Numbered from the stretch's first letter, positions 5,021-63,896 are shown. The stretch is 64,000 nt of DNA from Opitutales bacterium (GCA_963676215.2 CAXXVT010000016.1:45689-109688); one strand, 5' to 3'. Program-made: numbers and translations. The notes: a model not told the origin generated them from the letters alone.

Positions 5021-5089
5021 TTATTATTCGAACAAACCCGACTCCGCAAATTTCGTGATTAATTTAACTTGAATTGGAAACAGAAAATT

Positions 5090-5848: not shown

Positions 5849-5873
5849 GTATTAACCTCAAAGAAAGGTTCAC

Positions 5874-27677: not shown

Positions 27678-28745
27678 TCATTTCTGGGGTTCTCCATCTT
27701 CCTTCGAAGATTCGTTTCGTTTCAGCATCCGGTCAAAGTCGCTCACAAACAGGCGATCCTGAATAATCCGGTATTTTTCAAACTCACTTTCGGCGTGGGC
27801 CTTGGCAATTTCCGCTGTCACTCTCCCCGCGTCCTGAAGGATCTCCCGGTCGGTGGCTTCAATGAACCGGTTCAGTCGAGTTTCCCAGTCCTGCATCGTC
27901 ATGGGTATCTCACGAAGTGCCATATCTTCTGCAATATCCAAATAGGCCGAAACCAGCCGTTGCAATTGCGCCATCTCGCTTCCGGTAAGATAGTTTTTTG
28001 CTACACTGACATCGAAGTTCTGGATTTTACCTTGGGGAGCGTCTTTCCAGGTAGTGAGGCCCATGTTTTGTTTTTTGTGATCGGCCCGATCTACAATCAC
28101 TTCTGCAGCAGTCTGACCATGAATGGCCCAATGCAGCTTGTTCTGTACCGTCGCAAAAAATCGATTCGTGGCTTGAGCTGTTACATCATAATCGATTGAG
28201 CTCGTATAGATATCGGTAACCTTCTGATAAAACTTGCGCTCACTCAGACGGATTTCCCGGATGCGCTGCAACTGTTCTTCAAAATATTTCTTACCGAGAA
28301 CCGTGCCGTCATTCTTCAGACGCTCGTCGTCCATGGTGTAACCCTTGATGGTGAACTCCTGAATAATCTGGGTCGCCCATTTCCGGAACTGCACAGCTCG
28401 TTCTGAGTTGACCTTGTAGCCGACAGCAATGATCGCCGACAAATGGTAGTGGTTCGTATTGTATTTTTTTCCGTCGGTGGCAGTTATCCGAAAATTTCGG
28501 ATAACTGAAACTTCTTCTAACTCGCTGTCACTGAAGATCTTTTTCAAATGATAGTTAACCGTTCTGACATCAACATCATAAAGCGTTGCCATCATTTTCT
28601 GGGTCAGCCAGATATTTTCATCCATGTAAATTGCTTCGACACCGCTTTCACCGGTGGCCGCAACAAAGGTGAGGTATTCCGCAGCGGAGGAACGGACAAT
28701 AGAGGTCTTTTGCTTTTGGGATGGTGATTTCTTTTTTGCAGTCAT
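27678..28745 (-). CDS. rhuM: RhuM-family virulence/DNA-binding protein
   Basis: Near full-length match to the RhuM pattern: WLTQKMMATLYDVDVRTVNYHLKKIF, HYHLSAIIAVGYKVNSERAVQFRKWATQI, YFEEQLQRIREIRLSERKFYQKVTDIY, HWAIHGQTAAEVI. Confidence 0.85.
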   Translation of the reverse strand: MTAKKKSPSQKQKTSIVRSSAAEYLTFVAATGESGVEAIYMDENIWLTQKMMATLYDVDVRTVNYHLKKIFSDSELEEVSVIRNFRITATDGKKYNTNHYHLSAIIAVGYKVNSERAVQFRKWATQIIQEFTIKGYTMDDERLKNDGTVLGKKYFEEQLQRIREIRLSERKFYQKVTDIYTSSIDYDVTAQATNRFFATVQNKLHWAIHGQTAAEVIVDRADHKKQNMGLTTWKDAPQGKIQNFDVSVAKNYLTGSEMAQLQRLVSAYLDIAEDMALREIPMTMQDWETRLNRFIEATDREILQDAGRVTAEIAKAHAESEFEKYRIIQDRLFVSDFDRMLKRNESSKEDGEPQK

Positions 28746-28932: not shown

Positions 28933-30096
28933 TTAAGACGACAACGCGTCATAGTAGGCCCGTGCATCCATCGGGCCAATACTCAGAATGCCTGAGAGTG
29001 TGCTCGGGCTGGGTTCGCGTTCGCGAATATACTGACCGAACGCTTTGAAGAAATCGGTGCCAAATTGCTCCTGGGCAACGCGGATGAACTGATCGGCGGT
29101 TGGATGTTCGTCATCGAATAAAAACTCGCTCAGCGTCGGAAGTTTTTTGTTAAACTTGGTGATCTCGGAGTGAAGATGTTTGTCGTCTATTTCAACAAAG
29201 GGTAGCTGATGTGCCTTGGCATAGCTTTTCAACTCAAGATAGATACTGAGTGGTGAAATCATGAATTTCTTTGCCTCAGTCAAGATGTGCCGAATACGGC
29301 TATCGTCGCTTCGCAGCCGACGATAATATAAAAAACCTGCCTTTGCGGCGTCTTCGGGAAAGAGGAGTGCACCTGCAAAAGCATCGGCGAAGTCTTCTGC
29401 GTCGTCGTATAAATTCGCCTCCAGAAGATTGATCGTCATGACATGGCCCAATTCGTGTGCCATCCAAAACTTAAAATCATGAATCTCAACATCGAGGTTC
29501 AAATAAATCCAGGTTGTTTTGGAATCACGCAAATGGATATGCAGGGCATTTTCGTGCTTTGATTTTTTACCCCATAACACCGGTACAATGACGGCCTGAT
29601 AGTTATGGAAACAATCGATGAGGTGATCGAATTCCAATGGTGCATCACTGGGTAGATTCATGTCACGGCGAAACTTTGCGACGAGATTTTGTAGGTAGCG
29701 ATAGTCCGTTTTCGGGCTTTTCAGTGCGGGTGGCCCTAGGAAGGGGTCAAAGTCGAGATAACCGACAAGCGGACGCAGCAATTGTCCCATGTCCTTTGCA
29801 CGTGCGACATGCGCTTCTGTGGTTTTGCAGCCAGCACGTTTACGAAATGCAACAAGGGGTTCCTGAACGGACATTGTAGTCTCAACCAGTTCATTGTGGC
29901 GTAAACCCAATAATCTTCCGAGTTTCAGAAGTTCCGGAGGGCGAGGGAGAGATTTCCCGGTAAACCATTTCGAAACGGCTGCTCTGGTAAGCCCAAGTTT
30001 CCCCGCAATTGAGGTTTGCGTTAAACCAAGTTCCGCACATCTGGCCTCTATACTGGCTTGATTTAGATGTTTCTCCAAAGGGAAGGAGTTGATCAA
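28933..30096 (-). CDS. XRE-family HTH fused to ImmA/IrrE (COG2856) zinc metallopeptidase
   Basis: N-terminal HTH LGLTQTSIAGKLGLTRAAVSKWFTG, a central HEXXH (FWMAHELGHVM), and about 150 aa of uncharacterised C-terminus. Confidence 0.8.
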   Translation of the reverse strand: MINSFPLEKHLNQASIEARCAELGLTQTSIAGKLGLTRAAVSKWFTGKSLPRPPELLKLGRLLGLRHNELVETTMSVQEPLVAFRKRAGCKTTEAHVARAKDMGQLLRPLVGYLDFDPFLGPPALKSPKTDYRYLQNLVAKFRRDMNLPSDAPLEFDHLIDCFHNYQAVIVPVLWGKKSKHENALHIHLRDSKTTWIYLNLDVEIHDFKFWMAHELGHVMTINLLEANLYDDAEDFADAFAGALLFPEDAAKAGFLYYRRLRSDDSRIRHILTEAKKFMISPLSIYLELKSYAKAHQLPFVEIDDKHLHSEITKFNKKLPTLSEFLFDDEHPTADQFIRVAQEQFGTDFFKAFGQYIREREPSPSTLSGILSIGPMDARAYYDALSS

Positions 30097-30296
30097 AAAT
30101 CGATGTCAACTTTTGTTGACTTATTTGTTTTTTGGACGAATGCAAGCCTAGTTGATCAAATCAGAATCTAAGATCTTCATCTTACCGGAGAAACCGGTTT
30201 GGGTGCCTCTTCCAACTCAGACGCCAGAATTCTAAAAATTGAACGAATGACTTGCTAATCAACATCACAGGATCTGTTATATTGGCAATGTCTCAG

Positions 30297-30368
30297 GACA
30301 GATCCTCCGAGCCTAATGGCTTAGGATATGGCTTTCGCCTCGTTCGTCCGATAAGCAACGGGGCATTT
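30297..30368. repeat. Island repeat, copy B (5' module only)
   Basis: gacagatcctccgagcctaatggcttaggatatggctttcgcctcgttcgtccgataagcaacggggcatt differs from 39404-39475 at 3 positions. It translates to ..SEPNGLGYGFRLVRPISNGAF. Confidence 0.8.
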
Positions 30369-30447
30369 CTAATTTCGCATACACAGGAAAAAGCTGACTC
30401 GTGTGTTTCTTTGATGGCCTTCTCAGGTGGTTTCATCTGAAGATTTC

Positions 30448-30858
30448 TCACAACTGCAATTGTCGAAATTTTGGACCGGGATATTCCAAAACATAACCAA
30501 ATGGACGTTCTCCTCTTCGACAAAACTCCTTCAGCTCTTCCCAATGCTTTACGGTGAGTTGTATCATCTTCCAATAATTCCATGGGTTCTTTTTAGATGG
30601 ACGGAAAATGATCAATCCCAGTTTATGGTAGCTCCATAAGTCCTTTTGAGCCTGGATCCTGTAGATATTTACGTCCTGAGTGATCGCTATTCCATGTGCT
30701 TGAGCAACTTTCGGAATCCATTCTTCATCTTTAGCACCTCTTCCAAATTCCTCTCTCACTGAAAGAACATCAAAACCTTCTCTTAAACGTCCGTTTTGAA
30801 ATTCACGCATTCCACGAATGAGGCGGGGAGAAAAGTTTTCGTCAAAATAGAGTCTCAT
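30448..30858 (-). CDS. DUF5615 (PIN-like/Mut7-C-like) putative toxin
   Basis: MRLYFDENFSPRLIRGM...DEEWIPKVAQAHGIAITQD matches the DUF5615 pattern. It overlaps the upstream DUF433 gene by 4 nt. Confidence 0.7.
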   Translation of the reverse strand: MRLYFDENFSPRLIRGMREFQNGRLREGFDVLSVREEFGRGAKDEEWIPKVAQAHGIAITQDVNIYRIQAQKDLWSYHKLGLIIFRPSKKNPWNYWKMIQLTVKHWEELKEFCRRGERPFGYVLEYPGPKFRQLQL

Positions 30859-31538
30859 GCAGCATTTCGGCTTTCAAATTCGATAGCCGAAGCGACTTGA
30901 TCCATTGAAAGCTCATAATCATTGGCGAGGTCTTCGGGAAGTTCACCCGAAGAATGGAGGGAAAAAAGAGTTTCGGTTGTGATATTGGTGCCATATATCA
31001 CGGGGCGACCGAAGGAGTGTTTAGGGTCTACGACAACCAGACGGTTGTCACCTAGTGGAAAATACCGCTCAGCATGTTGAGTATGCTTGTCGAAATCGAT
31101 TCGAGTACAAAACGGTTCAACGATTTTTTCAAATGCTTGTTGTCCGTTCGTTCCCAGTTCAAGCAATGCTTCATCACCCAACTGCCTGAGCATTTTCCGC
31201 CCATTTACTAACAAACCTTCCAACGCAAATGGAAACTCAGTTTCATAGCGTTCGCCCAATTCCTGACGAACCTTCCGTAATGTTGCTGGAGTGACACCAA
31301 ACTCACGAAGTTCTGCGATGGTGAAAACCTCGATGAGCGTTAGGAAATTGAAATGACGTCTTGGCCCGGACTCTTCAACCGCCAACTTCCCAAATGAGTA
31401 TTTCCGCTGCTCTGATTCTGACACGGTATAACCAGCTACCCAACGTCTGAGTTTAGACAAAGGTAGGTTCAGAATCTTTGAGGCATCTGGAATCGTATAA
31501 ACTCCTGAGCTCAAAACATTTGGATTTATTGAGGACAA
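30855..31538 (-). CDS. DUF433 putative antitoxin with N-terminal HTH extension
   Basis: C-terminus HSFGRPVIYGTNITTETLFSLHSSGELPEDLANDYELSMDQVASAIEF is DUF433. N-terminus VYTIPDASKILNLPLSKLRRWVAGY is a MerR/excisionase-like HTH. Confidence 0.7.
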   Translation of the reverse strand: MSSINPNVLSSGVYTIPDASKILNLPLSKLRRWVAGYTVSESEQRKYSFGKLAVEESGPRRHFNFLTLIEVFTIAELREFGVTPATLRKVRQELGERYETEFPFALEGLLVNGRKMLRQLGDEALLELGTNGQQAFEKIVEPFCTRIDFDKHTQHAERYFPLGDNRLVVVDPKHSFGRPVIYGTNITTETLFSLHSSGELPEDLANDYELSMDQVASAIEFESRNAA

Positions 31539-31823
31539 TTTGAAAGTAATGAACGCTTGTTTATCTAAAAATTACTATCTTCAATTCCAGAGAAAGGTCA
31601 AGATCACGAATGGTTCAATTACATGCACATTTGGTTCAACAAATCCAGTAACCGGCTCAAAACGCTGAAATCGGTGGGTTGAATCATGGGATAGTTAGTT
31701 CAGAAAACAGTTGTTTTACGTAACAACGTGATTACTGGCTTTTTTGTCTTATACCGATCCTTCAACTTTAGAATCCATCGAGAGAACCCAAACAAACTCC
31801 AATTAGTTTGGAGATTCCAGCTA

Positions 31824-32936
31824 CTAGCGATTCTCAAATTTAAATCTTTTTTTCAGTGGTCGATTTAAGGGTGAGGCAAACGAAACCAGACCACGATGCT
31901 GAAGTTGTCCCAAAACGACACCGGGAGTCACATTCAATTCCTTTGCAAAATGTCTAATTTCAAAAGCTCCTGGATTCGGATTAGTCGCAACAAATCGATG
32001 ATAACTCTGGGCGTCTATTAACTTCGTAGCCGCATAGTTGTTTGCTTCTATTTCTTTTGGATCTTCAACAGCTTCACCAGGGTTGTCGATAAAGAGCTTT
32101 TTCTTCACCTCCTGCAGGACATGTTTCGCTTCATGAAAGAAATTGAACCAGATATGGTCATCTGAATTCCAACGCAAACTCAACACAATCACAGGCATTC
32201 CATTTTGCCAAAAAGTGACTCCCCCAATAGCCATTTTTGGCATTTGAGGTAAGAATAACAGCAATACACCGGCTTCTGCACACAGCGTTATCATCTGTTT
32301 CTGATACTGAATTAAATCTTCTGTTACACTTGCACGAATGTCATCCAACACCTCCACAAATCTCATTTTGTTGTAAGCAGGCAACTCAGCTTTAGACGCA
32401 ATTCTCTCGGCTTGACGTACCCAGCAGGCGACTGATTTTGGACAGGTCTCAAGTTTCCCTGAAGCTTTGAAAGCAGGAATCCTTTCATCCCAAAAAGAGC
32501 TAAAGACCGCAGGGGAGCCTATTCCAAAAAACGAAAGTAGTTCCTCTAACTTCTTCTCTGCTTTTCCACCAACATCAGGAAGCCAATCTTCCTGAACAAG
32601 TGCAGGATATGGAAAACTACGCGCCCAATCCAAAGACTCTGCGAAACTCTCTTGTTCCTTCTTTTTCGCAGTGAACTCATCAAATTGGTTTTGCATGTTG
32701 TTCCAAAAACGAGCGGGCACATCGAATACCTTTTCTAAAACCAACGCAAATTCGTGTGAAATTCTAGAGGTGCCATTAAGAATCTTGTGGATATGCGGTT
32801 CAGTCCAACCGGTGCGCTTTGTAAATTCGGCAACAGACATCCCCGCCTCTTCGATGTATTCGCGCAAAGCTGATCCAGGATATTCTACGATATCGGGTTG
32901 ATATTCGTTTTGGTAAAGTTTTTCTGAGCTAGCCAT
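31824..32936 (-). CDS. higA: HigA-type XRE antitoxin fused to ImmA/IrrE metallopeptidase
   Basis: N-terminus GSALREYIEEAGMSVAEFTKRTGWTEPHIHKILNGTSRISHEFALVLEKVFDVPARFWNNMQ is HigA-like. HEXXH lies in FFHEAKHVLQ. The start ATG overlaps the higB-like stop. Confidence 0.8.
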   Translation of the reverse strand: MASSEKLYQNEYQPDIVEYPGSALREYIEEAGMSVAEFTKRTGWTEPHIHKILNGTSRISHEFALVLEKVFDVPARFWNNMQNQFDEFTAKKKEQESFAESLDWARSFPYPALVQEDWLPDVGGKAEKKLEELLSFFGIGSPAVFSSFWDERIPAFKASGKLETCPKSVACWVRQAERIASKAELPAYNKMRFVEVLDDIRASVTEDLIQYQKQMITLCAEAGVLLLFLPQMPKMAIGGVTFWQNGMPVIVLSLRWNSDDHIWFNFFHEAKHVLQEVKKKLFIDNPGEAVEDPKEIEANNYAATKLIDAQSYHRFVATNPNPGAFEIRHFAKELNVTPGVVLGQLQHRGLVSFASPLNRPLKKRFKFENR

Positions 32937-33236
32937 GGTAATCTACGATTTCTTGTATGCAAACAACCTCGATCGCAGACCAAACGATATTTTTCGAATC
33001 ATCGATAGCTTTGGGTTTGAAAACGAGACGGTAGGGGTGATCCAAGTTACAAGCAAAGGTTCCACTTCGGTCACCCTTGAGTTGATGATATTTTGCGCCG
33101 GGAATATGTCTGAGATCCTCGAGACATTGAGCATTTTTCGGTATAATCCTGCCCGTTTCGCTCCCAACTTCTTATCTGCTTTCCGAGCATTGTTCGCGAA
33201 GGTTTTGAGTTGATTGTTCTTAAAGAGGATATCCAT
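32929..33236 (-). pseudogene. higB: HigB-like (plasmid-maintenance killer family) toxin, frameshifted
   Basis: Frame 1 from ATG 33236 gives MDILFKNNQLKTFANNARKADKKLGAKRAGLYRK. The conserved C-terminal half (LEDLRHIPGAKYHQLKGDRSGTFACNLDHPYRLVFKP...IEVVCIQEIVDYHG, stop 32931-32929) lies in another frame. The switch maps near the A5 run (minus-strand cgaaaaatg, about 33130). Confidence 0.7.
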
Positions 33237-33315
33237 GGAAGAGGGTCAAGTCAAATATCACTAAACAAATTATTTAGTCATTTAATAGTTTTGTTAATTA
33301 TAATCAGAATAGAAT

Positions 33316-33546
33316 TCATCTCATCTTAGGCAATTGCTTTGGCAGACAGGCAGTCGGTGAGTTTGAGTTGAGGTTCTGGGCTGACTTGAGGTTTGTTTTG
33401 AGTTGTTCGCAAAGCGCCATGAGTCCATCGACCTTGGCTACGATGGGGAGTTGTTCGGAAAAGGGAGGAATGAGAATTGGGAGTTTACTCATGGTTTGTC
33501 TGCTAACATTTTTCATTGAGGTAATGGTTCCCGAAGCATTCTTCAT
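33316..33546 (-). pseudogene. hsdS: Orphan C-terminal fragment of a type I restriction specificity subunit (HsdS)
   Basis: LPILIPPFSEQLPIVAKVDGLMALCEQLKTNLKSAQ parallels the conserved repeats of the intact hsdS (LPPENEQHRIVAKVDELMALCDQLKANL). No target-recognition domain is present. Confidence 0.75.
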
Positions 33547-33575
33547 ATGCTATTCCCATGGTATGCGTAGAACTC

Positions 33576-33604
33576 ACCTAAATTTCCTCACCCAGAATTT
33601 AGGT
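33576..33604. promoter_or_regulatory. 9-bp-arm inverted repeat upstream of the SIR2-like gene (candidate operator)
   Basis: acctaaatt - 11 nt - aatttaggt, about 90 nt upstream of the GTG start at 33693. Its function is not established. Confidence 0.2.
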
Positions 33605-33692
33605 AATTAGAACAATTCACACATGTTCAGTTAAGCTGTAACATTAAAATTTCATTCCTATCCTCTTCTATTCTGTCTGACCACTCTATCCC

Positions 33693-34688
33693 GTGCCCTC
33701 TGACTTAGATTCTCTTGTTCGATTTCTCAAAACCTCAACGGGATTTGTGCTTTTTGTGGGGTCTGGCATTAACTATGGATACGTTCCTCTCTGGAAACAG
33801 CTTTGTTCCAACCTGCTTGATGTTTCTTTGCCGCTTTTGATTTCGCCAAACGGACCCGATCCGCGGAAAATCAAAAAACAAATAGAGCAGAGTTACGATA
33901 TCTATAATCTGCCCTTTTTGGTGAAGTCCTTAATCGGAGACCGTTATTCAGGATTGCTGCGCAATATCATCTATGAGAACTACCGTGGTCCTTATCAAGT
34001 TCATCAAATAAATAAAAATGCACCAAGTCAAAAGGTGGAGGACACCACGCTTTATCAGGTGGTTAAGCTGTGTCAGCTTCCGACTGTTAAAGCAGTCGTA
34101 ACCTATAATTATGATACGCTTCTCGAAGATGCGCTTCGGGTGGAAACCGATGGGAGAGACTTTGTAAGTATCGTGGACAATCACGAAATCGAATCAAATA
34201 TGCCCACTCTCGGAAGGGAATTGGTAACATTACCGATTTACCATGTGCACGGATTTCTCCCGCGCAGGAACGACATCAATTATCCGGTCAATTGTGAAGT
34301 GGTGCTGGCGATGGATGAATATTTAAACTCCTTTCGACAACAGGATTCCTGGAACAATACCACCCAAATTTTCTTCCTCAGGAACCATCCATGTTTATTC
34401 ATTGGGACCTCGCTGAAGGACATCAATATGCTTCGGCATCTCTTTTCTACCCGGGAAAATAAAACGCCTCATTCTTCAATCAGACTTTCCAGGCTTCTTG
34501 AAAAAACTCCTGATCCATCAAATAAAACAAGTCCGATGACTTTGGATGAAATTCGTGAAAATGCTGTCCTCCAGAAACTGGAATCGCACATGTTAAACCA
34601 CTACAACATCAGGGCGATCTACCAGGACAGCATTCCCGACTTTTTGATGAAACTGAATGAACAATTGAGAAATCGAAGCCCCTGCTAA
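33693..34688 (+). CDS. SIR2-like (SIR2_2 family) protein, putative NAD-consuming effector
   Basis: FVLFVGSGINYGYVPLWKQL (GAGxS-like NAD loop), VVTYNYDTLLEDAL, PIYHVHGFL (catalytic His region) and LFIGTSLKDINM follow the order and spacing of the SIR2_2 domain. The start is GTG. Confidence 0.8.
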   Translation: MPSDLDSLVRFLKTSTGFVLFVGSGINYGYVPLWKQLCSNLLDVSLPLLISPNGPDPRKIKKQIEQSYDIYNLPFLVKSLIGDRYSGLLRNIIYENYRGPYQVHQINKNAPSQKVEDTTLYQVVKLCQLPTVKAVVTYNYDTLLEDALRVETDGRDFVSIVDNHEIESNMPTLGRELVTLPIYHVHGFLPRRNDINYPVNCEVVLAMDEYLNSFRQQDSWNNTTQIFFLRNHPCLFIGTSLKDINMLRHLFSTRENKTPHSSIRLSRLLEKTPDPSNKTSPMTLDEIRENAVLQKLESHMLNHYNIRAIYQDSIPDFLMKLNEQLRNRSPC

Positions 34689-34707
34689 ACAACCCCCCTG
34701 TAATCTC

Positions 34708-37548
34708 ATGAGCAAACCGCGAAAAGATCCTTCCATTATCGAACTCAAAACCGGAAATGACACGCTTGACGAATTGTTAAGGGGGGGATTACACATCAAC
34801 TCCGATCTTGGAAAACATGGTATTGTCGTTGTGATTCGTGGTGAAGGAGGAACTGGGAAAACGACCCTTGCACTGCAGATGACGCACGCGCTCAGTTACA
34901 GCTATCGCAACATTGTTACAACCGAAAAAAAAGATGAGATTGAACAAGCCAAGAAGGATCTAGAGGTCGAGACAAAAGAAGGGAACCCCATAGTCGAGCA
35001 GAAGGAAGAAATTGCACCGAATATTGGATATATCAAACATGCAAAATGGTTTCCGATTAAAGAGACTCAGGAGAAGCTAAACGAGTATCATGAAAAGTGG
35101 AATGAATACAAGGAGGAGCAAGATTCATTCAAGGAAAATCCAGAACAGAAGAAGCCAGAACGTGGTTATAAAGAGATTCCGAAGCCTCCCCCTCGATATG
35201 GCTTGTTTTCCAGCACAGAGAATACGTCGGACGACATCCTCAAGCGTTTGAGTCGGCTCATTGTGGCAAAAGATCTTGAAGATAGCTGTCAAGCGTTGGG
35301 GTATCCATATGCATTGCCCGAGCCAGTGGTGGAGGAAAGTGAAGAGTTTAACAAAGTCCTCGTTCGATGGGATTTTCAAGAAAAGCAACACATCTTGCGG
35401 TGCTGGGAGGTGAAGGATCTGCTGGTCCTGGAAATGAATAAATCGTGTTCAGAAAAATGCTATCACCTCGCGGCTTCAAAAAAGGACAGGATTCGGGCCC
35501 GCAAATTCCAGATTTTCTATAGAAAAAAATCTTATGTAGATGAAAACAAAAAGGAGATCAAATTAACTCCTCCGATCAGCATTGACTATCCTACATATGA
35601 TACGACAAAAGGTTCGCTAGATCCTCAATACGATCGCTTTACAGCTTTCTGTCATTTGTTTTCGAGATTTCTTACTGCACCAAACTGCAAAGAAACCTTC
35701 AAGCACAAGGGTCCTAAAAAAGATAAGAAAGATACTAAACGGCGTCTGAGAGAAATCCGAAACAAAATTGAAGAGGAAAAATCTGCTGTCATCAATGAAA
35801 TCGCCAAGCATTACGAAAAGGATATTGTAGAACCTCTAATTCAATTCGGTGGAATCGGTTCCCAAGTTCAGGATATTGAAATTCAACCCACAGATACGGC
35901 CACAGCGGTTCATCACATCCAAACGCGTATCAACACATTTCGTGAAAAAAGCAAATCTGCGCTGAGAGAGACTCCTTTAGTATTCACGATTGATGGGCTT
36001 GGAGCCATGGTGCCCGAAGAGCGTAATAATCAGTTGTTTTCATCGTTGATTAGCAATCTAAGGGCAACGGTTCCACTGACCATTATCACGCTTGAGGACT
36101 CTGGAGCTCCCTCCAATTACATTGATCATCAGGCAGATCTGGTGATCCTGATGCGGGCAAATGAAACAACAAAACCGATTCATTATCTAATTCATGAGAT
36201 GCAGATCACCAAGTCCCGCTATCAGACTGTGGCTTACGGTTGGCACCAATACAAAATGAGAAATTGGGGTGCAGTGATTTTTCCATCCAGTCACTTCATG
36301 CTGCATCAATTCAACTATGTTCCTCAACAGTATATCAAGAGCTACAGTCATATCCAAATCAATGAAAAATTCAATTCCAACGAGCAGCGGAAACCTTACG
36401 ACTATTACGTTTCAATCATTGAGGGCATTTTAGGATTCACCTCTGGAAATCGTGAGAAATCATCGGGATCGACCATTGCATTGATGGGGAGTAGGGGTTG
36501 TTTTAAAACCGCACTGTCGATCGATTTTTTGACCTCAGGAGGGATGGGCGTTCAACGTAAACGGGATGCTGAGAATAAGTGGAATTCTTTTCCATCAGAA
36601 TCCGGACTTATTGTATCACTGATCGATGACGAATACTATATTCGGGAAAGCATGATTTGCCAGCGTCGAGGGAGTTGTAAAGAAGCGTGCACCTTCGTGG
36701 ACAGAAATTTTGTTCGGTTCAGCCGTTCTAAAAAACATCCTATTTGTTCCTGTAGGGAATGTGCGAGCCGTATATCCCAATTTTACCAACGAACCGGATG
36801 TATCACTTCTTCCGAACTGCTCTTTAACCTCCGAGCTCGAATCCTGAAAGAAAAGGAATACGAAGATGCTAAAACCGAAGAGGAAACGAAAATGAATGGC
36901 GCTCCACTACAAAAACCAGGAGAAGACATTGATCGCATGGTTTTCTGGGATGTAACGCAACTAGACTATCGTTTTCCATTCCTATCAGATGACCCTCTAT
37001 TCGTTCCCGCTTTATTTGATTTGGTCAAAAAGAAGAAGGGAATGAGAGGTCTCTTCATGGGCTCTATGAATGCCAAAAACTCTGGTGTCATTTCAACGAT
37101 CGCAGACAACATCATTTTCGCATGGAGGGATCGGTTGGAAGTAAAAGAATATGATGAATATAACAATAAAGTAGAAGAGCCCCCAAAAACTGATCCCAAA
37201 ACAGAAGGAATGAAAAGACTGCGATCAGGAGATTGCCTTCTCTTATTTGTCGATCGAACCGAGGGAACGATTGGAAGGGACAACAAAGCTTTGTACTGGT
37301 TCCCGATCGGAACTCGGGTCAAAGCCAAACCATCCATTACTCCAAAAGACGTTGAGCTGCAAAAAGAAGGTGACTCCCTCGCAATTGAAACTGAACCAAC
37401 AGGTGAGAAAGGAAATTCGATCCCCACAATTATTCTCCCCGATATTCCGTGGAAACCTGCCGAATATAAGGTCCCCAGAGAGTTATGGGCCAAATTCTCG
37501 AAGTCTGAAGACATGATCAAAGAAATCGAAAAACTTCAGGGGCTTTAA
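34708..37548 (+). CDS. 946-aa tandem KaiC/RecA-like P-loop ATPase with a large charged insertion and a Cys-rich insert
   Basis: Domain 1: LDELLRGGLHINSDLGKHGIVVVIRGEGGTGKTTLALQM (Walker A at 34840-34863). After a roughly 370-aa K/E-rich insertion come LVFTIDGL (Walker B-like) and ADLVILMRANE...MQITKSRYQ. Domain 2: STIALMGSRGCFKTALSIDFL (degenerate P-loop) and LIVSLIDDE, plus a Cys cluster (CQRRGSCKEAC...CSCRECASR). It starts 19 nt after the SIR2-like stop. Confidence 0.7.
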   Translation: MSKPRKDPSIIELKTGNDTLDELLRGGLHINSDLGKHGIVVVIRGEGGTGKTTLALQMTHALSYSYRNIVTTEKKDEIEQAKKDLEVETKEGNPIVEQKEEIAPNIGYIKHAKWFPIKETQEKLNEYHEKWNEYKEEQDSFKENPEQKKPERGYKEIPKPPPRYGLFSSTENTSDDILKRLSRLIVAKDLEDSCQALGYPYALPEPVVEESEEFNKVLVRWDFQEKQHILRCWEVKDLLVLEMNKSCSEKCYHLAASKKDRIRARKFQIFYRKKSYVDENKKEIKLTPPISIDYPTYDTTKGSLDPQYDRFTAFCHLFSRFLTAPNCKETFKHKGPKKDKKDTKRRLREIRNKIEEEKSAVINEIAKHYEKDIVEPLIQFGGIGSQVQDIEIQPTDTATAVHHIQTRINTFREKSKSALRETPLVFTIDGLGAMVPEERNNQLFSSLISNLRATVPLTIITLEDSGAPSNYIDHQADLVILMRANETTKPIHYLIHEMQITKSRYQTVAYGWHQYKMRNWGAVIFPSSHFMLHQFNYVPQQYIKSYSHIQINEKFNSNEQRKPYDYYVSIIEGILGFTSGNREKSSGSTIALMGSRGCFKTALSIDFLTSGGMGVQRKRDAENKWNSFPSESGLIVSLIDDEYYIRESMICQRRGSCKEACTFVDRNFVRFSRSKKHPICSCRECASRISQFYQRTGCITSSELLFNLRARILKEKEYEDAKTEEETKMNGAPLQKPGEDIDRMVFWDVTQLDYRFPFLSDDPLFVPALFDLVKKKKGMRGLFMGSMNAKNSGVISTIADNIIFAWRDRLEVKEYDEYNNKVEEPPKTDPKTEGMKRLRSGDCLLLFVDRTEGTIGRDNKALYWFPIGTRVKAKPSITPKDVELQKEGDSLAIETEPTGEKGNSIPTIILPDIPWKPAEYKVPRELWAKFSKSEDMIKEIEKLQGL

Positions 37549-37935
37549 CCCTCAATAGTGGATTTTTCTGCATCCATGAAAGGATTCATCGCAGTAAGTG
37601 GAATTGTGGGAGGATTTGTTAAACTCGATTTTTGGGAATTAATTCCTGATTTTCAAGGTTAGGAGTATCATCCGATACGGAAATGTATTTCAGCTGCCAA
37701 TTGATTGCTGAAACATTTACTGAAAAGAATTCGGATTACGACCCCTGCGACACTCCGAAGTTTCCGGCCCTGAATTAACCTCGATGAATTGTTCTCTCAT
37801 TTGGGTTTTGATTTGATTGATGATGGGTTCCTGCTATGATCGTTAAAACTAGAGTTATCCCAAATTATTACTCCAATTCCTTCCAAATACAGCGCTTGAT
37901 TACCTGCGTGTTAAAAAATAACTTTAAAGTTAATC

Positions 37936-38337
37936 TTGAAATATACGATTAAAGATTACATTAGTGGTATTGATTGTACTATCTGCATGTTAGGTATTGA
38001 TGGGAGATACCCAGCACTGGATTTTCTAGAGGAGAACGAACGAAAATATGAAAAAGATGTGGCAGAGGTCCAACGCTATATGGAGCGAATGGCTAAAGCT
38101 GGACAAGTTCGTAACAAGACCAAGTTTAAGGCATTGGAGAATGGACTATTCGAATTCAAATCAGGCACCAACGGATTGCGGGTCACTTGCTTTTGGCACA
38201 AAGGGAAACTTTTGATTTGTGGACATTGTTTCATCAAAAAATCTCAGAAAACGCCCAAAAGACATCTCAAAAAAGCACTAGGAATTAAGAAAAACTTTGA
38301 AGATACACTGAAGACTGAAGGTATTCATCATGAATAA
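37936..38337 (+). CDS. higB: Gp49/HigB-like (RelE-fold) toxin of a TAC module
   Basis: PALDFLEENERKYEKDVAEVQRYMERMAKAG...KFKALENGLFEFKSGTNGLRVTCFWHKGKLLICGHCFIKKSQKTPKRHLKKA matches the phage Gp49-like/DUF891 toxin pattern. The start is uncertain (TTG 37936 or ATG 37987). Confidence 0.7.
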   Translation: MKYTIKDYISGIDCTICMLGIDGRYPALDFLEENERKYEKDVAEVQRYMERMAKAGQVRNKTKFKALENGLFEFKSGTNGLRVTCFWHKGKLLICGHCFIKKSQKTPKRHLKKALGIKKNFEDTLKTEGIHHE

Positions 38338-38815
38338 GATTGAAGACAGAATTGAATCTCAAAAAAGTCGGGTAAAGAACACTTTGACCTACAAAGTGTA
38401 TGGCTTACACGTGGATTTAACTGAGAATTTTCTCGAACAATTGGATGCGCTTAAGCTCACTCAAAAACAGCTCTCCGAACGTGCGGGACTAAAGCCTTCG
38501 TATGTTAATCGGGTGCTGAATAATCCGTCTAACCTCACTATCGAAACGGTAGTGAAACTTGCGGAAGCGCTGGAGATGGACGTGAAGATGCTTCTCAAAA
38601 AGAAAACGGAAAACTCGTGGTTTAAATTTTCGGGTGAAGTTTATGAAGGATTTAAAAAGGTATTGGAGTCGGCCGTTGATGAAGTGATCGAATCCAAATT
38701 GAAAATTTTAAAGGAACAATTGCATTGGGAACTCACATACGAAAATCGAAAAATCGACAGTGATGAACTAGAATCTGAACCATTAACCGACGATGAATTC
38801 CCCTTTGCAGCTTAA
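38330..38815 (+). CDS. higA: XRE-family antitoxin with a C-terminal extension (candidate chaperone-addiction tail)
   Basis: HTH LKLTQKQLSERAGLKPSYVNRVLNNPSNLTIETVVKLAEALEM, followed by about 70 extra acidic residues. It overlaps the toxin by 8 nt. Confidence 0.75.
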   Translation: MNKIEDRIESQKSRVKNTLTYKVYGLHVDLTENFLEQLDALKLTQKQLSERAGLKPSYVNRVLNNPSNLTIETVVKLAEALEMDVKMLLKKKTENSWFKFSGEVYEGFKKVLESAVDEVIESKLKILKEQLHWELTYENRKIDSDELESEPLTDDEFPFAA

Positions 38816-39236
38816 GACCTACCGCTTTTTAAAAACTTTTGTAGAGGCGAACCCGATCCAAGAAGGAGAGGTGAGTATGTCCATTGGTGTCGACTCCGAC
38901 GTTCGCTTGAGCGAAGCAAACGACGGAAAAGACTGGATCGTTATTCTTTCTGTAAAACTGAAGGAAAATGAGGAGGCTAAACAACCGTCCGCTTACAAGG
39001 CGGATATCACGGTATTAGGTCAATTTAGTGTCGACAGTGAATACCCGGTGGAGAAAACACCCCGGATGGTAGCAGTTACTGGAGCGAGTCTGCTCTATGG
39101 AGTGGTCCGGGAAATGGTAGCCAACATCACGGCCAGAAGTATTCATGGTGAATTTACTCTCCCCGTGACCTCATTTGTTGATTTAGATCCCAAGAAAATT
39201 GAATCACAATCAGGGAATTCCTCAACCGAAAGCTAA
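38793..39236 (+). CDS. secB: SecB-like chaperone (TAC-type)
   Basis: LQLKTYRFLKTFVEANP...ADITVLGQFSV...MVAVTGASLLYGVVREMVANITARSIHGEFTLPVTSF parallels the SecB core (CPNILFPYAREaIsdLvtrGgFPpLmLaPvNF). It overlaps the antitoxin 3' end. Confidence 0.7.
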   Translation: MNSPLQLKTYRFLKTFVEANPIQEGEVSMSIGVDSDVRLSEANDGKDWIVILSVKLKENEEAKQPSAYKADITVLGQFSVDSEYPVEKTPRMVAVTGASLLYGVVREMVANITARSIHGEFTLPVTSFVDLDPKKIESQSGNSSTES

Positions 39237-39403
39237 CGGATTGCCCCAGTCGAAAGGCAGTCTGCCGATGGTAGTTGGGTCGTTTATGGTTGTTTTAAGC
39301 CACAGGGGTTCCTTCGTTGTTCTGGCGAATGGACTCCTCATTCTCCCTTGCAATCAAATTGAATTTGGAGGGATATTGCACGATGATCCGTGTAATGTGT
39401 AAC

Positions 39404-39620
39404 GACAGACCCTCCTAGCCTAATGGCTTAGGATATGGCTTTCGCCTCGTTCGCCCGATAAGCAACGGGGCATTCTTGCATTTAAGGATTCTCCACAATT
39501 AACTTGAATTCAAAGGCATTCTCGACGATCTTATTGACAGGACTTTAAAGGTTCCTACCCGGTGACAAGAGCCCAGGGGGCTCTTCCCAAGCAATTGGGA
39601 TAGCCGGGTTGGTCAGTTTT
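39404..39620. repeat. Island repeat, copy C (most complete copy)
   Basis: gacagaccctcctagcctaatggcttaggatatggctttcgcctcgttcgcccgataagcaacggggcatt ... attaacttgaattc ... taaaggttcctacccggtgacaagagcccagggggctcttcccaagcaattgggatagccgggttggtcagtttt, in the same orientation as copies A and B. Confidence 0.8.
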
Positions 39621-39624
39621 TAGA

Positions 39625-40308
39625 CTAATAGTATTTCGTGTTTCCTGTGCGAAAAATGTCAAATTCACTTCGGATGACAGACTTTATCAGATCGTAGGAT
39701 CGAAAATCACCACGGGACCATTTGCGATAAACTCCCCAATTGAAATAGTCCGCTATTTGTAAATCATAGTTCGATTTGCTATCATGATGATAGATTCGGT
39801 AACTAGACGAAGAAGGGATGATGGCTGCTAAAGTCTCCTTAATTGTTTTCTCAACCGATTTTTTCTTTTTCGCGATAGGAATCCGATCGGTAAAGACAAT
39901 GACTTCTTTGTATTTGGTAAGATCGTGACTTTCCAAAACATATTTAAGTAAGTAGCCCAGCATCTTCGGATAGAACTTCACTGGCATTTGCAGGCTTGGG
40001 CCTGTTTTTCGTTTTTCAACTATAACGGCATCATAGTGAACACCCGTCAGATGATCACAAATAACCTTAAAAACTTCATTTCTGGTCGCCTGCTGATCCT
40101 CCGCTGCATGGAAGTACTCAATACCAATACCTTTTTCAACAAGGTCGTATTTGAGCTCATTCAATTCATGACTCGCATCAAACGGACGTTCTTTTGTAAT
40201 ACAACCGAGTAAGAAATACTGAGTTCCTTTTGCTGAAAAATCGAAATTTCCAGCTTCGTCCAAGAAGATATACAGGAAACGGTTTTTATTGTCAGATTGT
40301 GAGAACAT
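39625..40308 (-). CDS. DUF3800 family protein
   Basis: FLYIFLDEAGNFDF (DExG start motif), HAAED, and C-terminal HHDSKSNYDLQIADYF (LQxAD) are the hallmark DUF3800 blocks. I placed the start at ATG 40308; the track start 40329 is TTG. Confidence 0.7.
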   Translation of the reverse strand: MFSQSDNKNRFLYIFLDEAGNFDFSAKGTQYFLLGCITKERPFDASHELNELKYDLVEKGIGIEYFHAAEDQQATRNEVFKVICDHLTGVHYDAVIVEKRKTGPSLQMPVKFYPKMLGYLLKYVLESHDLTKYKEVIVFTDRIPIAKKKKSVEKTIKETLAAIIPSSSSYRIYHHDSKSNYDLQIADYFNWGVYRKWSRGDFRSYDLIKSVIRSEFDIFRTGNTKYY

Positions 40309-40399
40309 ATCGTGCTTGCGGGGCCTCAAAGTTTAGCAAATCCGGAAAACGCTCTTCGCAATAGATATCAAATTGGGTGGCTTGTTTCATATTCAAAAA

Positions 40400-41524
40400 C
40401 TATTTCGTTTTTCGATAGTTAACTTCATTACGAGCGTGCCGGAGAACAGCTTCGACTTTATCGAATTCACCCGCGGGAAACCATATCGGCGTTATACCGA
40501 TGTTCAGCAACTCTGTATTTCGCTTACGAAGATCCTCCAATGTTAGTGGAGCTTGTTCGATGGAGAAATGTTGCGGCAAGATTACATCCCCGATGGATTC
40601 TTTCACAGCTTGGAAAACCTGGATCGTGCGATCGTTATTCAAGCTACAGCCAATGAACAAGAGACTACTGGTTCTGTAATAATACCTCAGTAATTTTGGG
40701 ATGGGACGAGAGAGATCAAGCTCCGGTGCTCCGTAGGCTTCGTCATATTGATTCTTCCCCAAAATACAACGATGAGGATCCCTGATATCCCCATGCAATT
40801 TGATCACGGTAACCTTGTTCGCGTCAGGTGATTCCATTGCATTCAAGCCGTTGACAACTTGAACTTCATCATCTGGACCTACATCAAAACTTTGTTCCAA
40901 CAAACGATCATAGTTCGTTGTGATCAGTGTATCTGAAAACAATTCGGAAATGCGTAGGGTGATATCTTCCAAATTCCCTGTCTTTGAAAATGCATCACGG
41001 ATCTCTTGAGCAAAAACATCCTTCCCGCAGGTGTTTTCAATTTGTTCAATTAGCTCTTCAAATGCCCCGTTTTCCAAAAAAGACTCAATGACAGCAGACT
41101 CGATTCCTGCTGTCTTGCCTTGTTCCCTCAAATGATTCTTCCATGTTGGAAATCCTCCTGCCACTGAAACACCAGCACCGATGAACGGAACAACAGATTC
41201 TTCCATCAAACGGGCAACCATTTGATCAAACCGGGTTTTATTTCTTCTAAACCAATGATCATCACCAAAACTTTCAACAATAGCCTCCTTACTGAGCACA
41301 TCGTGCATTCTTTCAATATGGAATTGCTGGAATGCTTGATCGTATGCCTCCTTGTCACCAGCGTAAAATCCCTTACTCGGGTGTGCTAAGTTATCCAACC
41401 CAAAACGATTACAAAACTGGGCGGCATCACTTTCCCTACTATCGATCCAATCATTAAAATCTCTAAAATTTTCGAACAAATCGTGATTGTCACTATTACA
41501 CCAACTTTCGAGGACTTTTGACAT
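40400..41524 (-). CDS. SIR2-like (SIR2_2 family) protein with a roughly 130-aa unknown N-terminal region
   Basis: VVPFIGAGVSVAGGFPTWKNHL, LITTNYDRLLEQSF, VIKLHGDIRDP, LLFIGCSLNNDRT. I trimmed the start to ATG 41524 (MSKVLESW), 13 nt after the hsdS stop. The longer track ORF would overlap hsdS by 86 nt. Confidence 0.8.
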   Translation of the reverse strand: MSKVLESWCNSDNHDLFENFRDFNDWIDSRESDAAQFCNRFGLDNLAHPSKGFYAGDKEAYDQAFQQFHIERMHDVLSKEAIVESFGDDHWFRRNKTRFDQMVARLMEESVVPFIGAGVSVAGGFPTWKNHLREQGKTAGIESAVIESFLENGAFEELIEQIENTCGKDVFAQEIRDAFSKTGNLEDITLRISELFSDTLITTNYDRLLEQSFDVGPDDEVQVVNGLNAMESPDANKVTVIKLHGDIRDPHRCILGKNQYDEAYGAPELDLSRPIPKLLRYYYRTSSLLFIGCSLNNDRTIQVFQAVKESIGDVILPQHFSIEQAPLTLEDLRKRNTELLNIGITPIWFPAGEFDKVEAVLRHARNEVNYRKTK

Positions 41525-41537
41525 AATGGAGGCCGTT

Positions 41538-43268
41538 TTAGCCAACTGCTTGTTCGACCAAACTGTCGGCGAGCTTGAGTTGGGTGGCTTGGGCGGTGGC
41601 GAGGTTGGCTTTGAGTTGATCACACAGCGCCATCAGCTCATCGACTTTGGCGACGATGCGGTGTTGTTCGTTTTCAGGCGGGAGCGCAAGAGTGATTGAA
41701 TTCATCTTTACCTGGTTCATCTTGGGTTGAGCGGTTCCCGTTACGTAGGGCTCCAGCGAAATCGCGTTGATATGCAGGCACACATAAAGAAGGAGTGTTT
41801 CAGAGATTCCGTCGAGGACGTGAGCGTGATTGTTAACCCAGTATTTCCCTCGGGCCATGAAGGCGATAGGTGTGGATCTATTGATGAGATTCGCTCCATC
41901 TTCCCCAATGAGAAGGAGTGGTTTATCGAACAGGTAATCATCAATTGAGTCGATCACACCGGAAGCGCCGTAGTAATCAAAGTCCCCCTGCCGCGTCTTT
42001 CGGGTATCTACCGAAAGCGGCACTCTCTCAGCGTCACGGTTGTAGACGACATCTCCAAATGGAGCGAGAACCCAACCGCTGGGCACTGCTCTCTCTGTTT
42101 CTCCAGAGGGTGGATTTGCGGTTTTTTTCTGCTTCTTTAGCTTTCCGTCTTCGATGAGCTTCACTCGTTCGACGGAAATTCTCTTGATGAGCTTATCTGC
42201 CGGTTCGTCGTTGGGATTCTGGGGGATGAGTTTTCCCATGACGGCGAGTTGGAGGATGGTTTGTTTGAGTTGGCCGATGCTGCTTTCGGTGGTGAAGAGG
42301 GTGTCGAAGTTGACTTGGATGCGCTGCCAGGCATCGGCAAAGGATGAGGCGTTAGCGGTGGAAGAGGTCAGGGCATCCAGCAATGTGCGAACAAGGGTGT
42401 CATGAGTTTCAAGACTGTTTTCTTGTTCCTGCTCCAATTGATCGCACAACGCCATCAATTCATCCACCTTGGCAACAATGCGTTGTTGTTCGGCGAGGGG
42501 TGGGATCGGGAATTCGAACTTCTCCAGCACCTTTTTACTTAGACCTTCGATAGCCATTCCAACCTGCCTTCCCCAAACGAGCTTTTGTACTAAAGGAGAC
42601 AGGATCCCAAGATGCAAAAACTCGGCCATCTCTGGTTCAACCAAACGAATAATCGTCACGTGTTGGCTAACGTTGGCTGTGACAAGTTCTTCGGGGAATA
42701 TTGTCGATCGGCCAAGCGAGGCTCCTGTGATATTGAGTAGAACATCACGAGGGAACACTTGAGTATTGTTCATTGCCTCATGCGTTTCCTCAGGAATGTA
42801 GGCGGTGTCGTCGAGTCTTAAGCCGTCATTCCATACATTTTGGGACCGCAGAAAAATGATACCTTCAGGGACATATGCGCTTTTACCGCCGCGGGGAGTG
42901 CTGCCAGAGCCGAGTTTCGATGTCAGATTTCCAATTCTTTCAAACATCCAGCCAGGAGGAAGCGGAAACGGAAATTCGTCTTTATCAACAGGCGGTTGCT
43001 TAGGCTGCTTTCTAATTTTTCCATCGTCGATTAGTTGAGCTTTCTGAGTCGCGATTCTCTTTAGTAGTTCTTCGGACGATTCCTCATCTGGGTTCTGCGG
43101 GACAAGCATTCCTCGGACAGCCAACTCAAGAATCAATTCTCGCAGCCTTTGAATCCCGTAAAGCTCCCGCTTGCTACTTGAGCCCCTTCCTACACTCGAC
43201 TTCGCCTTCACCGCCGAGGTCCAGACGTCGAGATTCTCGGTGATGAGTTTTTCAGCGGTCTCCATCAC
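41538..43268 (-). CDS. hsdS: Type I restriction-modification specificity subunit HsdS (two TRDs)
   Basis: 576 aa with two variable target-recognition regions separated by conserved helices (PLAEQQRIVAKVDELMALCDQLEQE and PPENEQHRIVAKVDELMALCDQLKANL). There is a 4-nt overlap with hsdM. Confidence 0.92.
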   Translation of the reverse strand: MMETAEKLITENLDVWTSAVKAKSSVGRGSSSKRELYGIQRLRELILELAVRGMLVPQNPDEESSEELLKRIATQKAQLIDDGKIRKQPKQPPVDKDEFPFPLPPGWMFERIGNLTSKLGSGSTPRGGKSAYVPEGIIFLRSQNVWNDGLRLDDTAYIPEETHEAMNNTQVFPRDVLLNITGASLGRSTIFPEELVTANVSQHVTIIRLVEPEMAEFLHLGILSPLVQKLVWGRQVGMAIEGLSKKVLEKFEFPIPPLAEQQRIVAKVDELMALCDQLEQEQENSLETHDTLVRTLLDALTSSTANASSFADAWQRIQVNFDTLFTTESSIGQLKQTILQLAVMGKLIPQNPNDEPADKLIKRISVERVKLIEDGKLKKQKKTANPPSGETERAVPSGWVLAPFGDVVYNRDAERVPLSVDTRKTRQGDFDYYGASGVIDSIDDYLFDKPLLLIGEDGANLINRSTPIAFMARGKYWVNNHAHVLDGISETLLLYVCLHINAISLEPYVTGTAQPKMNQVKMNSITLALPPENEQHRIVAKVDELMALCDQLKANLATAQATQLKLADSLVEQAVG

Positions 43269-63809: not shown

Positions 63810-63896
63810 TTCGACGAGCTCAGTGTGAATTGGAGTGAGGAGAAGAATTCGACAAACGAAATCGAATGGCTGCCCGGGCTGGGATCGAACCAGCGA
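63742..63896. repeat. 155-bp direct repeat, copy 2
   Basis: Identical to 62991..63145, offset by 751 bp. Confidence 0.85.

Follow-up and report, generated by a model that had tools for sequence, protein, structure and literature searches.

The anti-phage system SIR2-HerA (Gao_Her_SIR2) is a two-gene operon that encodes a small stand-alone SIR2 NADase and a large, ring-forming P-loop ATPase of the ASCE (additional strand, catalytic Glu) type. In this system the ATPase restrains SIR2, and a triggered rearrangement activates the hydrolysis of nicotinamide adenine dinucleotide (NAD+). The double-ATPase architecture of KaiC is known from circadian clocks and archaeal signalling. In this study, a stretch of 64,000 nucleotides (nt) from an Opitutales bacterium (GCA_963676215.2, CAXXVT010000016.1:45689-109688; the whole stretch is referred to as the window) was analyzed, in which a gene encoding a SIR2_2-family protein of 331 amino acids (aa) is followed by a gene encoding a tandem KaiC-like ATPase of 946 aa. 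The pair has the gene layout of SIR2-HerA and is expected to share its logic, in that an ATPase scaffold would gate NAD+ depletion and abortive infection. However, the ATPase has a tandem KaiC/RecA fold and not the FtsK-HerA fold, and it carries a degenerate second P-loop domain, a Cys knuckle and a hypervariable insertion. By sequence profile and structural model, the resemblance between the two ATPase partners is therefore one of analogy and not of homology. We consider it probable, though well short of certain, that the pair constitutes a self-contained, horizontally mobile, two-gene abortive-infection system directed against phages. The pair and its immediate surroundings are as follows:

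33693-34688, + strand: gene of the SIR2_2-family protein (331 aa), GTG start; predicted NADase effector composed of a SIR2 domain only
34689-34707, + strand: inter-gene spacer of 19 nt; fits an operon with coupled translation
34708-37548, + strand: gene of the tandem KaiC-like (RecA-superfamily) ATPase (946 aa), ATG start; predicted hexameric sensor/regulator
33547-33692, + strand: upstream intergenic region between an HsdS fragment (33316-33546, - strand) and the SIR2 start; presumed promoter region of the pair

Both open reading frames (ORFs) are present exactly as an earlier, sequence-only reading of the window had described them, on one strand and 19 nt apart. All of the motifs named in that reading were found as well, i.e. 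VLFVGSGINYG, TYNYDTLLED, YHVHGFL and LFIGTSLKD in the 331-aa ORF, and LDELLRGGL, VVVIRGEGGTGKTTLALQM, LVFTIDGL, ALMGSRGCFKT, LIVSLIDDE and the Cys cluster in the 946-aa ORF. Upstream of the SIR2 gene there is a single weak sigma-70-like match (33616-33644; 9 of 12 positions), and the numbers of promoter and terminator matches obtained in a scan were not above those in shuffled sequence.

The strongest results of this analysis are the near-obligate pairing of the two genes, observed from both sides and over at least 11 phylum-level lineages, and the tandem KaiC fold of the ATPase. The SIR2 protein has a tight clade of about 16 relatives, and in all six that were examined (including those in Cloacimonadaceae, Hydrogenedentota and Bacillota metagenome-assembled genomes, MAGs) the SIR2 gene is followed on the same strand by a gene for a KaiC-like ATPase of 589-1002 aa. 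On the ATPase side, a word-indexed homolog search returned one relative of the 946-aa protein (P0002), whose gene is preceded by a SIR2_2 gene on two independent contigs. The family itself was revealed by an exhaustive HMMER scan of 1.84 billion representative sequences, which yielded 325 clusters with E<=1e-3, of which 197 remained at E<=1e-10 and 75 at E<=1e-30. Its members are mostly 550-1000 aa long and, where they are named at all, are called only "hypothetical" or "KaiC/GvpD/RAD55 family RecA-like ATPase". With pattern scans for the ATPase, 19 loci were obtained from GTDB species representatives and a further 18 from metagenomes, and their ORFs were scored with hidden Markov models. A clade-type SIR2 gene was located directly upstream, on the same strand, in 30 of the 31 ATPase-fetched loci with upstream DNA (25 of 26 after de-duplication), and the loci lacking a SIR2 call were, with a single exception (L043), cut by a contig end. 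The gap between the SIR2 stop and the ATPase start had a median of 6.5 nt in 30 distinct loci, and a 4-nt overlap was frequent. The sequence-only reading, which would have failed had the two genes not been conserved neighbours in other genomes, was thus upheld on this point, whether the search started from SIR2 or from the ATPase.

The two proteins have also diverged together: pairwise identities among the SIR2 proteins correlate with those among the ATPases (Mantel r=0.83, p=2e-4; r=0.73 without near-identical pairs). No third conserved gene was found among 36 loci, in which no flanking protein cluster was common to more than 4. The largest flanking family, an ECF (extracytoplasmic function) sigma factor, was present within 3 kb in 4 of the 36, and the other flanks showed no relationship between loci. 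More than 25 uncultured bacterial lineages carry the pair, which is scattered patchily over the phylum-level lineages mentioned above, and every host is a MAG. The hosts belong to the Planctomycetota, Verrucomicrobiota, Myxococcota, Desulfobacterota-like bacteria, Nitrospirota, Hydrogenedentota, Calditrichota, Bacillota, Actinomycetota, Spirochaetota, Bacteroidota, Chloroflexota and Cloacimonadota. In a scan of IMG/VR viral contigs, no relatives were found. Strict pairing, co-divergence, the absence of a third gene, unrelated flanks and scattered hosts together identify the pair as a small, horizontally mobile two-gene cassette, and it displays the combination of conserved operon, variable flanks and patchy distribution by which defence systems are operationally recognized.

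The only locus with upstream DNA but without a SIR2 gene, L043, encodes a 722-aa chimera (4852-7020). The same sequence is present on a second, independent contig (L042, 2-1639), which supports the junction. In a type IIG/ISP restriction-methylase profile of 1646 positions, those from 2 to 385 are matched by the first 384 residues of the chimera (E=1.5e-148), which comprise an Mrr nuclease and the first helicase lobe, ending after motif III. The remainder is the second KaiC-like domain of the family, joined at the conserved VFPSxHF linker. An effector swap, in which the Mrr nuclease and helicase would stand in for SIR2, was considered and rejected, since the N-terminal part is a quarter of a restriction-methylase and the helicase stops after motif III. 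The chimera is probably a deletion scar that fused a neighbouring restriction-modification (R-M) gene to the back half of the ATPase gene, and it shows that the cassette adjoined an R-M gene in that lineage. A 475-aa ORF upstream of the chimera (3139-4566) is without a Pfam or PADLOC match. Three other loci carry an ATPase that is broken up into two or three ORFs (L027, 4791-7315; L038, 806-2571; L039, 1551-3492), and these are either decaying pseudogenes or the result of sequencing errors in the MAGs.

The fold of the ATPase was assigned by profile and structure comparisons. The 946-aa protein matches the Pfam KaiC family (PF06745) marginally (29.1 versus 26.6 bits) and with N-terminal residues 14-81 only, and its matches to the remaining Pfam P-loop families are below threshold and confined to the surroundings of Walker A. 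A direct search of PDB sequences with the 946-aa protein gave only spurious coiled-coil-like matches, which came from a Lys/Glu-rich insert, and was discarded. When the family profile was used instead, KaiC was matched with E=8e-11, together with PH0284 and PH0186 (archaeal single-domain KaiC-like proteins), FlaH and RadA (approx. 2e-5), and HerA was not among these matches. The AlphaFold2 model, built with 72 family members, has a predicted template modelling score (pTM) of 0.74, with confident cores and low-confidence, mostly helical insertions. In a Foldseek search of the PDB with this model, the top 50 matches were all full-length, two-domain KaiC chains (E of approx. 1e-17 to 1e-15), aligned over about 520 columns that span both domains, with target-normalized TM-scores of 0.48-0.59 and identities of 10-16%. 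No HerA, DUF87 or FtsK model of Pfam or PADLOC matched the ATPase even at E<=1, nothing in PADLOC-DB 2.0 was significant (the best match was mad8, E=0.005), and the nSTAND, NACHT and NB-ARC matches were all sub-threshold and limited to the P-loop, so that no STAND module is recognized in the protein. Sequence profile and Foldseek thus uphold the earlier view that the partner is a tandem KaiC/RecA-like protein and not HerA, STAND or a prokaryotic Argonaute (pAgo). Within the ATPase gene, the following elements were distinguished (conservation was counted over the 72 family members; pLDDT, predicted local distance difference test):

34840-34863, + strand: domain 1 Walker A, GEGGTGKT, residues 45-52; G45, G48, G50 and K51 invariant (72/72)
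34888-35199, + strand: variable insertion 1, approx. residues 61-164; Lys/Glu-rich (35% K+E), predicted helical
35200-35295, + strand: conserved beta-2 strand with the catalytic Glu (FSSTE171N) and the following helix, approx. residues 165-196
35296-35967, + strand: variable insertion 2, approx. residues 197-420, hypervariable; 22% Lys+Glu, near the protein-wide average
35980-35997, + strand: domain 1 Walker B, VFTIDG; D429 invariant (72/72)
36211-36252, + strand: KSRYQ...GWHQY motif, residues 502-515; proposed counterpart of the KaiC/RadA K-x-R finger
36460-37317, + strand: domain 2, degenerate KaiC-like, approx. residues 585-870; the Foldseek alignment spans both KaiC domains, pLDDT mostly >85
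36487-36510, + strand: domain 2 non-canonical P-loop, GSRGCFKT, residues 594-601; G594 and K600 in 72/72, R596 in 68/72
36658-36801, + strand: Cys cluster in domain 2 (C651, C657, C661, C680, C682, C685 and C698)
36937-36951, + strand: domain 2 Walker B-like strand, MVFWD748; begins the WDxxQLxxRFP signature

As read from the alignment, none of the catalytic motifs that mark an active RecA/KaiC-type ATPase is missing from domain 1. The Walker A pattern GxxGxGK[TS] is found in all 72 members. The position of E171 is occupied by Glu in 69 and by Asp in 3, within a strand of the pattern [FY][ST][LC]-E-Q. Residues 167-187 can be aligned by BLAST with the corresponding segment of P0002, and the model places a strand at 165-169 and a helix at 174-196 with a pLDDT of approx. 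78-89. Further downstream, D477 is conserved in 72/72, K502 and R504 each in 71/72, and Q506 and G511 each in 72/72. We take K502-x-R504 to be the equivalent of the trans-acting K-x-R finger of KaiC and of the KNRFG motif of RadA/Sms.

A Lys/Glu-rich insertion of roughly 370 residues had been noted between the Walker motifs. The long stretch before Walker B is real (377 residues separate K51 from D429), but it consists of two insertions that flank the conserved Glu strand, and only the first of them is enriched in Lys and Glu. Nor is it a special trait of this protein, as it represents an extreme of a family-wide hypervariable region, in which the K51-D429 spacing ranges from 89 to 551 residues (median 171.5). 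The spacing between K51 and E171 is 118 residues here, which is the family maximum (median 29.5), and that between E171 and D429 is 258 residues (60-482 in the family, median 125). The pLDDT of insertion 1 is low over residues 94-118 and 147-160, and insertion 2 is mostly of low confidence. Sequence similarity (E<1e-3) between the second insertions was detected in 18 of 2485 pairs, versus 2556 of 2556 for the adjacent core, and the insertion 2 of the window's protein was similar to no other family insert in this pairwise comparison.

Domain 2 is conserved in a different manner. Its P-loop follows the family pattern GxRxx[FWL]K[TS], in which Phe, Trp or Leu replaces the canonical sixth Gly, and the position of KaiC's catalytic Glu pair is occupied by Asp/Asn. 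D748 and P757 are invariant (72/72) and F756 is nearly so (71/72). Lacking both the canonical Gly and the catalytic Glu, domain 2 probably binds nucleotide as a regulatory or structural tier. The Cys cluster is conserved to varying degrees (C651 61%, C661 71%, C682 93%, C685 96% and C698 79%), contains a low-pLDDT segment (residues 663-680) and is probably a metal-binding zinc knuckle inserted in the domain.

The partner gene encodes a protein whose SIR2_2-type identity, proposed in the sequence-only reading, is upheld. The 331-aa protein matches Pfam SIR2_2 (PF13289) with E=4.5e-13 and 49.9 bits (gathering cut-off 24.5 bits), and its catalytic residues are intact, as among 47 homologs G23 and G25 of the Rossmann GxG motif are nearly invariant and N139, D141 and H186 are invariant. 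The AlphaFold2 model based on these homologs (pLDDT 86.8, pTM 0.88) is a bare SIR2 fold, which covers the whole protein and leaves no further domain. The solved structures nearest to this model are ThsA (Thoeris), DSR2, KomC (Kongming) and Avs5, and a search of PDB sequences with the family profile gave ThsA (E=5e-18) and the same immune set, plus human FAM118B. The PADLOC ThsA model was matched with E=2e-8 over profile positions 76-280 of 478, a stretch that we read as the SIR2 part of ThsA, and the generic 'SIR2' models of PADLOC, taken here as those of HerA-associated SIR2 proteins, gave E=0.018-0.03 only. SIR2-HerA chains were absent from the top 50 structural matches, and no NCBIfam model, including those for CobB-type deacylases, Dsr1 and Dsr2, matched the protein. 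With its intact catalytic residues, and with immune NADases as its only nearest relatives, the protein is very probably an NAD+ hydrolase of the ThsA/DSR2/KomC type.

Although ThsA, DSR2, KomC and Avs5 supply its closest relatives and share the catalytic Asn, Asp and His, the SIR2 protein differs from each of them in architecture. It is without the SLOG/STALD domain of ThsA, and no TIR-domain gene, as expected for Thoeris, is adjacent. At 331 aa it has no fused sensor, unlike DSR1/DSR2 (approx. 1000-1200 aa with a large C-terminal sensor), and it is accompanied neither by the KomA/KomB partners of Kongming nor by the STAND module of Avs5. The pair is not Thoeris, DSR, Lamassu, SPARSA or Avs. 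It does not fall into the HerA-associated SIR2 group either, as its SIR2 resembles ThsA, DSR2 and KomC more closely than it does the generic PADLOC 'SIR2' models.

The ATPase, in turn, shares with KaiC and archaeal KaiC-like ATPases (PF06745/COG0467) the double RecA-like fold, the N-terminal GLDxLLxGG motif and, in domain 1, the Walker A, the catalytic Glu strand and the K-x-R motif. In contrast to KaiC, it has a non-canonical domain 2 P-loop, no domain 2 catalytic Glu, large variable insertions and the Cys cluster, and it is strictly coupled to SIR2. It scores 19.6 bits with the NCBIfam KaiC equivalog NF006799, versus a cut-off of 408 bits, and neither kaiA nor kaiB was among the 25 Pfam families listed in the flank census. 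The low equivalog score, the degenerate domain 2 and the absence of kaiA/kaiB nearby indicate that the protein is not a circadian KaiC ortholog. The KaiC-like RecA domain, the K-x-R-F-type motif and an associated Cys/zinc element are shared with RadA/Sms, but RadA has a single RecA-like domain combined with a Lon-like domain, its zinc finger is N-terminal, and it is a weaker match than KaiC.

It had been anticipated that no named system would correspond to the pair. This agrees with the lack of any significant PADLOC-DB 2.0 match for the ATPase and with the full text of about 8 million open-access papers and preprints, in which nothing relevant was found: no paper tied KaiC-type ATPases to prokaryotic SIR2 proteins or sirtuins, and none linked them to anti-phage defence. 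Nor is the pair mentioned in a domain-centric discovery paper of 2026 (PMC13069673). As far as these tools tell, it is an undescribed module, a putative SIR2-effector system whose presumably oligomeric ATPase partner comes from a different fold family.

In the window, the pair lies in a low-GC stretch (41-43% over approx. 30-41 kb, versus 45-52% outside), and this dip at 30000-41000 is consistent with a horizontally acquired island. The sole tRNA gene of the window (tRNA-Asn, 63867-63941, - strand) is far from it. The neighbouring features are:

27678-28745, - strand: RhuM-family protein at the left edge of the island; PF13310 E=1e-107, PADLOC PDC-S05 E=1.5e-151
28933-30096: HTH-ImmA/IrrE gene (HTH, helix-turn-helix) next to the RhuM gene, one of two such genes in the island
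30448-31538, - strand: PIN_10/DUF433 toxin-antitoxin pair
32943-33236: 97-aa ORF adjoining the HsdS fragment, previously called a 'higB relic'; no match found
33316-33546, - strand: orphan HsdS C-terminal fragment (76 aa), directly upstream of the SIR2 gene; PADLOC Specificity_I E=6.9e-13
37936-39236, + strand: HigB(Gp49)/HTH/SecB-like tripartite toxin-antitoxin-chaperone (TAC) module
39625-40329, - strand: DUF3800 gene, after the second SIR2 gene; PADLOC DUF3800_VII E=1.7e-12
40400-41623, - strand: second, unrelated SIR2_2 protein (407 aa), ThsA/LmuA-like; PF13289 E=5e-27, PADLOC ThsA 5e-22 and LmuA 4.5e-16
47116-48030, - strand: DUF5655/NucS-like protein, immediately downstream of hsdR; PADLOC candidate PDC-S18 E=1.8e-141

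Toxin-antitoxin modules are thus present on both sides of the pair (PIN_10/DUF433 and the HigB/HTH/SecB-like TAC module), and the HsdS fragment suggests that the pair was inserted into, or recombined beside, an older R-M locus. Of the defence island outlined in the sequence-only reading, the HTH-ImmA genes, the HsdS fragment, the TAC module and a type I R-M operon were found, whereas the ORF taken for a higB relic is without any match. The second SIR2 gene adjoins the type I hsdS-hsdM-hsdR operon at its downstream end, where it shares 86 nt with the start of hsdS, and together with the DUF3800 gene it may form an R-M-appended module.

Defence genes also accompany the pair at some other loci. 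It lies about 2 kb from Cas9-Cas1-Cas2 in L008. In L007 an additional ThsA-like SIR2 protein of 823 aa (3515-5986; PADLOC ThsA E=7e-20) is encoded directly upstream; its SIR2 domain is N-terminal and its C-terminal ~570 residues are uncharacterized. In one related lineage (L024, L034 and L044) an FRG/PDC-S15 gene is situated downstream. An apparent enrichment of PDC-S15, FRG, NACHT and MmeI in the flanks was set aside, as it largely collapses to this single lineage. No plasmid or conjugation genes were seen beside the pair in the flank census.

How the two proteins might act together can be outlined from their folds, and we give the following scheme an even chance of being correct: the KaiC-fold double-ring ATPase would serve as an immune sensor, with the hypervariable insertion as a diversifying receptor, and its ATP-driven states would gate the SIR2 NADase. 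The ATPase is predicted to form a two-tiered hexamer, with an active N-terminal ring and a nucleotide-binding, probably non-hydrolytic C-terminal ring. Such an assembly is expected from the KaiC double-domain fold and from the K-x-R residues, which, by analogy with KaiC and RadA, possibly act across subunit interfaces. As the SIR2 protein is a bare domain, its regulation and the sensing must reside in the obligate KaiC-like partner, which would bind SIR2 in a physical complex and keep it inactive. The hypervariable insertion on ring 1 and the Cys knuckle on ring 2 are candidates for the surfaces by which a phage protein or nucleic acid would be sensed. Sensing would cause an ATP-dependent conformational change that switches on the NADase activity of SIR2, and the resulting NAD+ depletion would stop phage replication. 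The gating of SIR2 possibly proceeds through a KaiC-like slow ATPase or autophosphorylation step. Our confidence in any specific trigger is much lower than in the defence/NADase framework as such.

The weakest link in the anti-phage reading is the defence function, which we infer from the effector type, the mobile nature of the cassette, its hypervariable insert and moderate guilt-by-association. Several points weigh against it. Defence neighbours are found in only ~5 of ~30 lineages (raw count) and most flanks outside the window are metabolic or regulatory, so the guilt-by-association signal is only moderate. The low-confidence inserts of the model could serve as disordered linkers instead of sensors, a deacylase or ADP-ribosyltransferase activity in place of NADase activity is conceivable in principle for SIR2_2 proteins, and co-divergence is equally expected for any two co-inherited genes. 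Moreover, the family is known almost only from MAGs, no cultured host is known, and its function is read from sequence and models.

Four alternatives were considered. A divergent member of SIR2-HerA would have the same general logic, with a small SIR2 gene beside a large oligomeric ASCE-type P-loop ATPase in a two-gene operon, but this explanation is effectively refuted by the lack of any HerA, DUF87 or FtsK match in Pfam or PADLOC even at E<=1, by the PDB profile matches to KaiC, RadA and FlaH in place of HerA, by the 50 top structures, all KaiC, by the two tandem RecA-like domains, in which the ATPase differs from HerA, and, on the SIR2 side, by the poor generic-model scores (E=0.018-0.03 versus 2e-8 for ThsA) and the absence of SIR2-HerA chains from the top 50 structures. 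It is also very improbable that the pair is an accessory of DNA repair or recombination, in which a RadA/Sms-like hexameric translocase would work with a SIR2 protein whose targets are DNA ends or repair proteins. There is indeed a resemblance between the K-[SA]-R-[FY]-Q motif and the KNRFG of RadA/Sms, RadA is among the profile matches (E of about 2e-5), and the Cys knuckle recalls its zinc finger. However, KaiC outscores RadA in both sequence and structure, there is no Lon-like C-terminal domain, the pair occurs rarely and patchily, and its flanks show no link to repair genes.

In another alternative, the pair would be a housekeeping or regulatory module. Its KaiC-like ATPase, as a signalling hub or slow timer, would respond to stress or to the metabolic state and thereby govern a SIR2 deacylase or ADP-ribosyltransferase that acts on cellular proteins. 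Signalling is the role of KaiC-family ATPases in cyanobacteria and archaea, most loci lie among metabolic, sensor-kinase or sigma-factor genes and not among defence genes, and an ECF sigma factor recurs within 3 kb at four of them. We nevertheless regard this as unlikely. The SIR2 protein falls into the SIR2_2 NADase group (ThsA, DSR2, KomC and FAM118B) with no NCBIfam CobB match, and all of its neighbours by structure are immune NADases; the pair is rare, is scattered patchily across phyla and has flanks that are not conserved; no kaiA/kaiB-like or other conserved partner appeared in the flank census; a hypervariable insert is atypical of housekeeping regulators; and the locus in the window is a dense defence island. 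Alternatively, the pair could take part in a conflict other than that with phages, either as a system excluding plasmids or mobile elements or as an addiction (toxin-antitoxin-like) cassette, which would stabilize the island by means of a toxic NADase held in check by the ATPase. Such an architecture, as well as the mobility, would fit this explanation equally well; the island in the window is rich in toxin-antitoxin modules, and IMG/VR viral contigs contained no homolog. On the other hand, the flank census showed no plasmid or conjugation genes next to the pair, and the characterized SIR2 two-component systems are all anti-phage. These analyses do not set this alternative apart from anti-phage defence, and we regard it, too, as unlikely.

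If the reading as an abortive-infection system is true, the KaiC-like ATPase would join SLOG/signal receptors, HerA rings and fused sensors/pAgo as a fourth class of partner of SIR2 NADase effectors, and this would be, as far as the open literature shows, the first immune role for the KaiC fold. The family occurs almost only in MAGs (of phyla such as Planctomycetota, Verrucomicrobiota, Hydrogenedentota, Calditrichota and Cloacimonadota), which would account for its having been missed by discovery pipelines based on isolates, and, if it is a defence system, metagenomic lineages still harbour unnamed immune architectures. The short natural variants of the ATPase (560-600 aa) are convenient for cloning and cryo-electron microscopy, and the hypervariable insertion inside a strongly conserved ATPase would offer a tractable model for the diversification of specificity.

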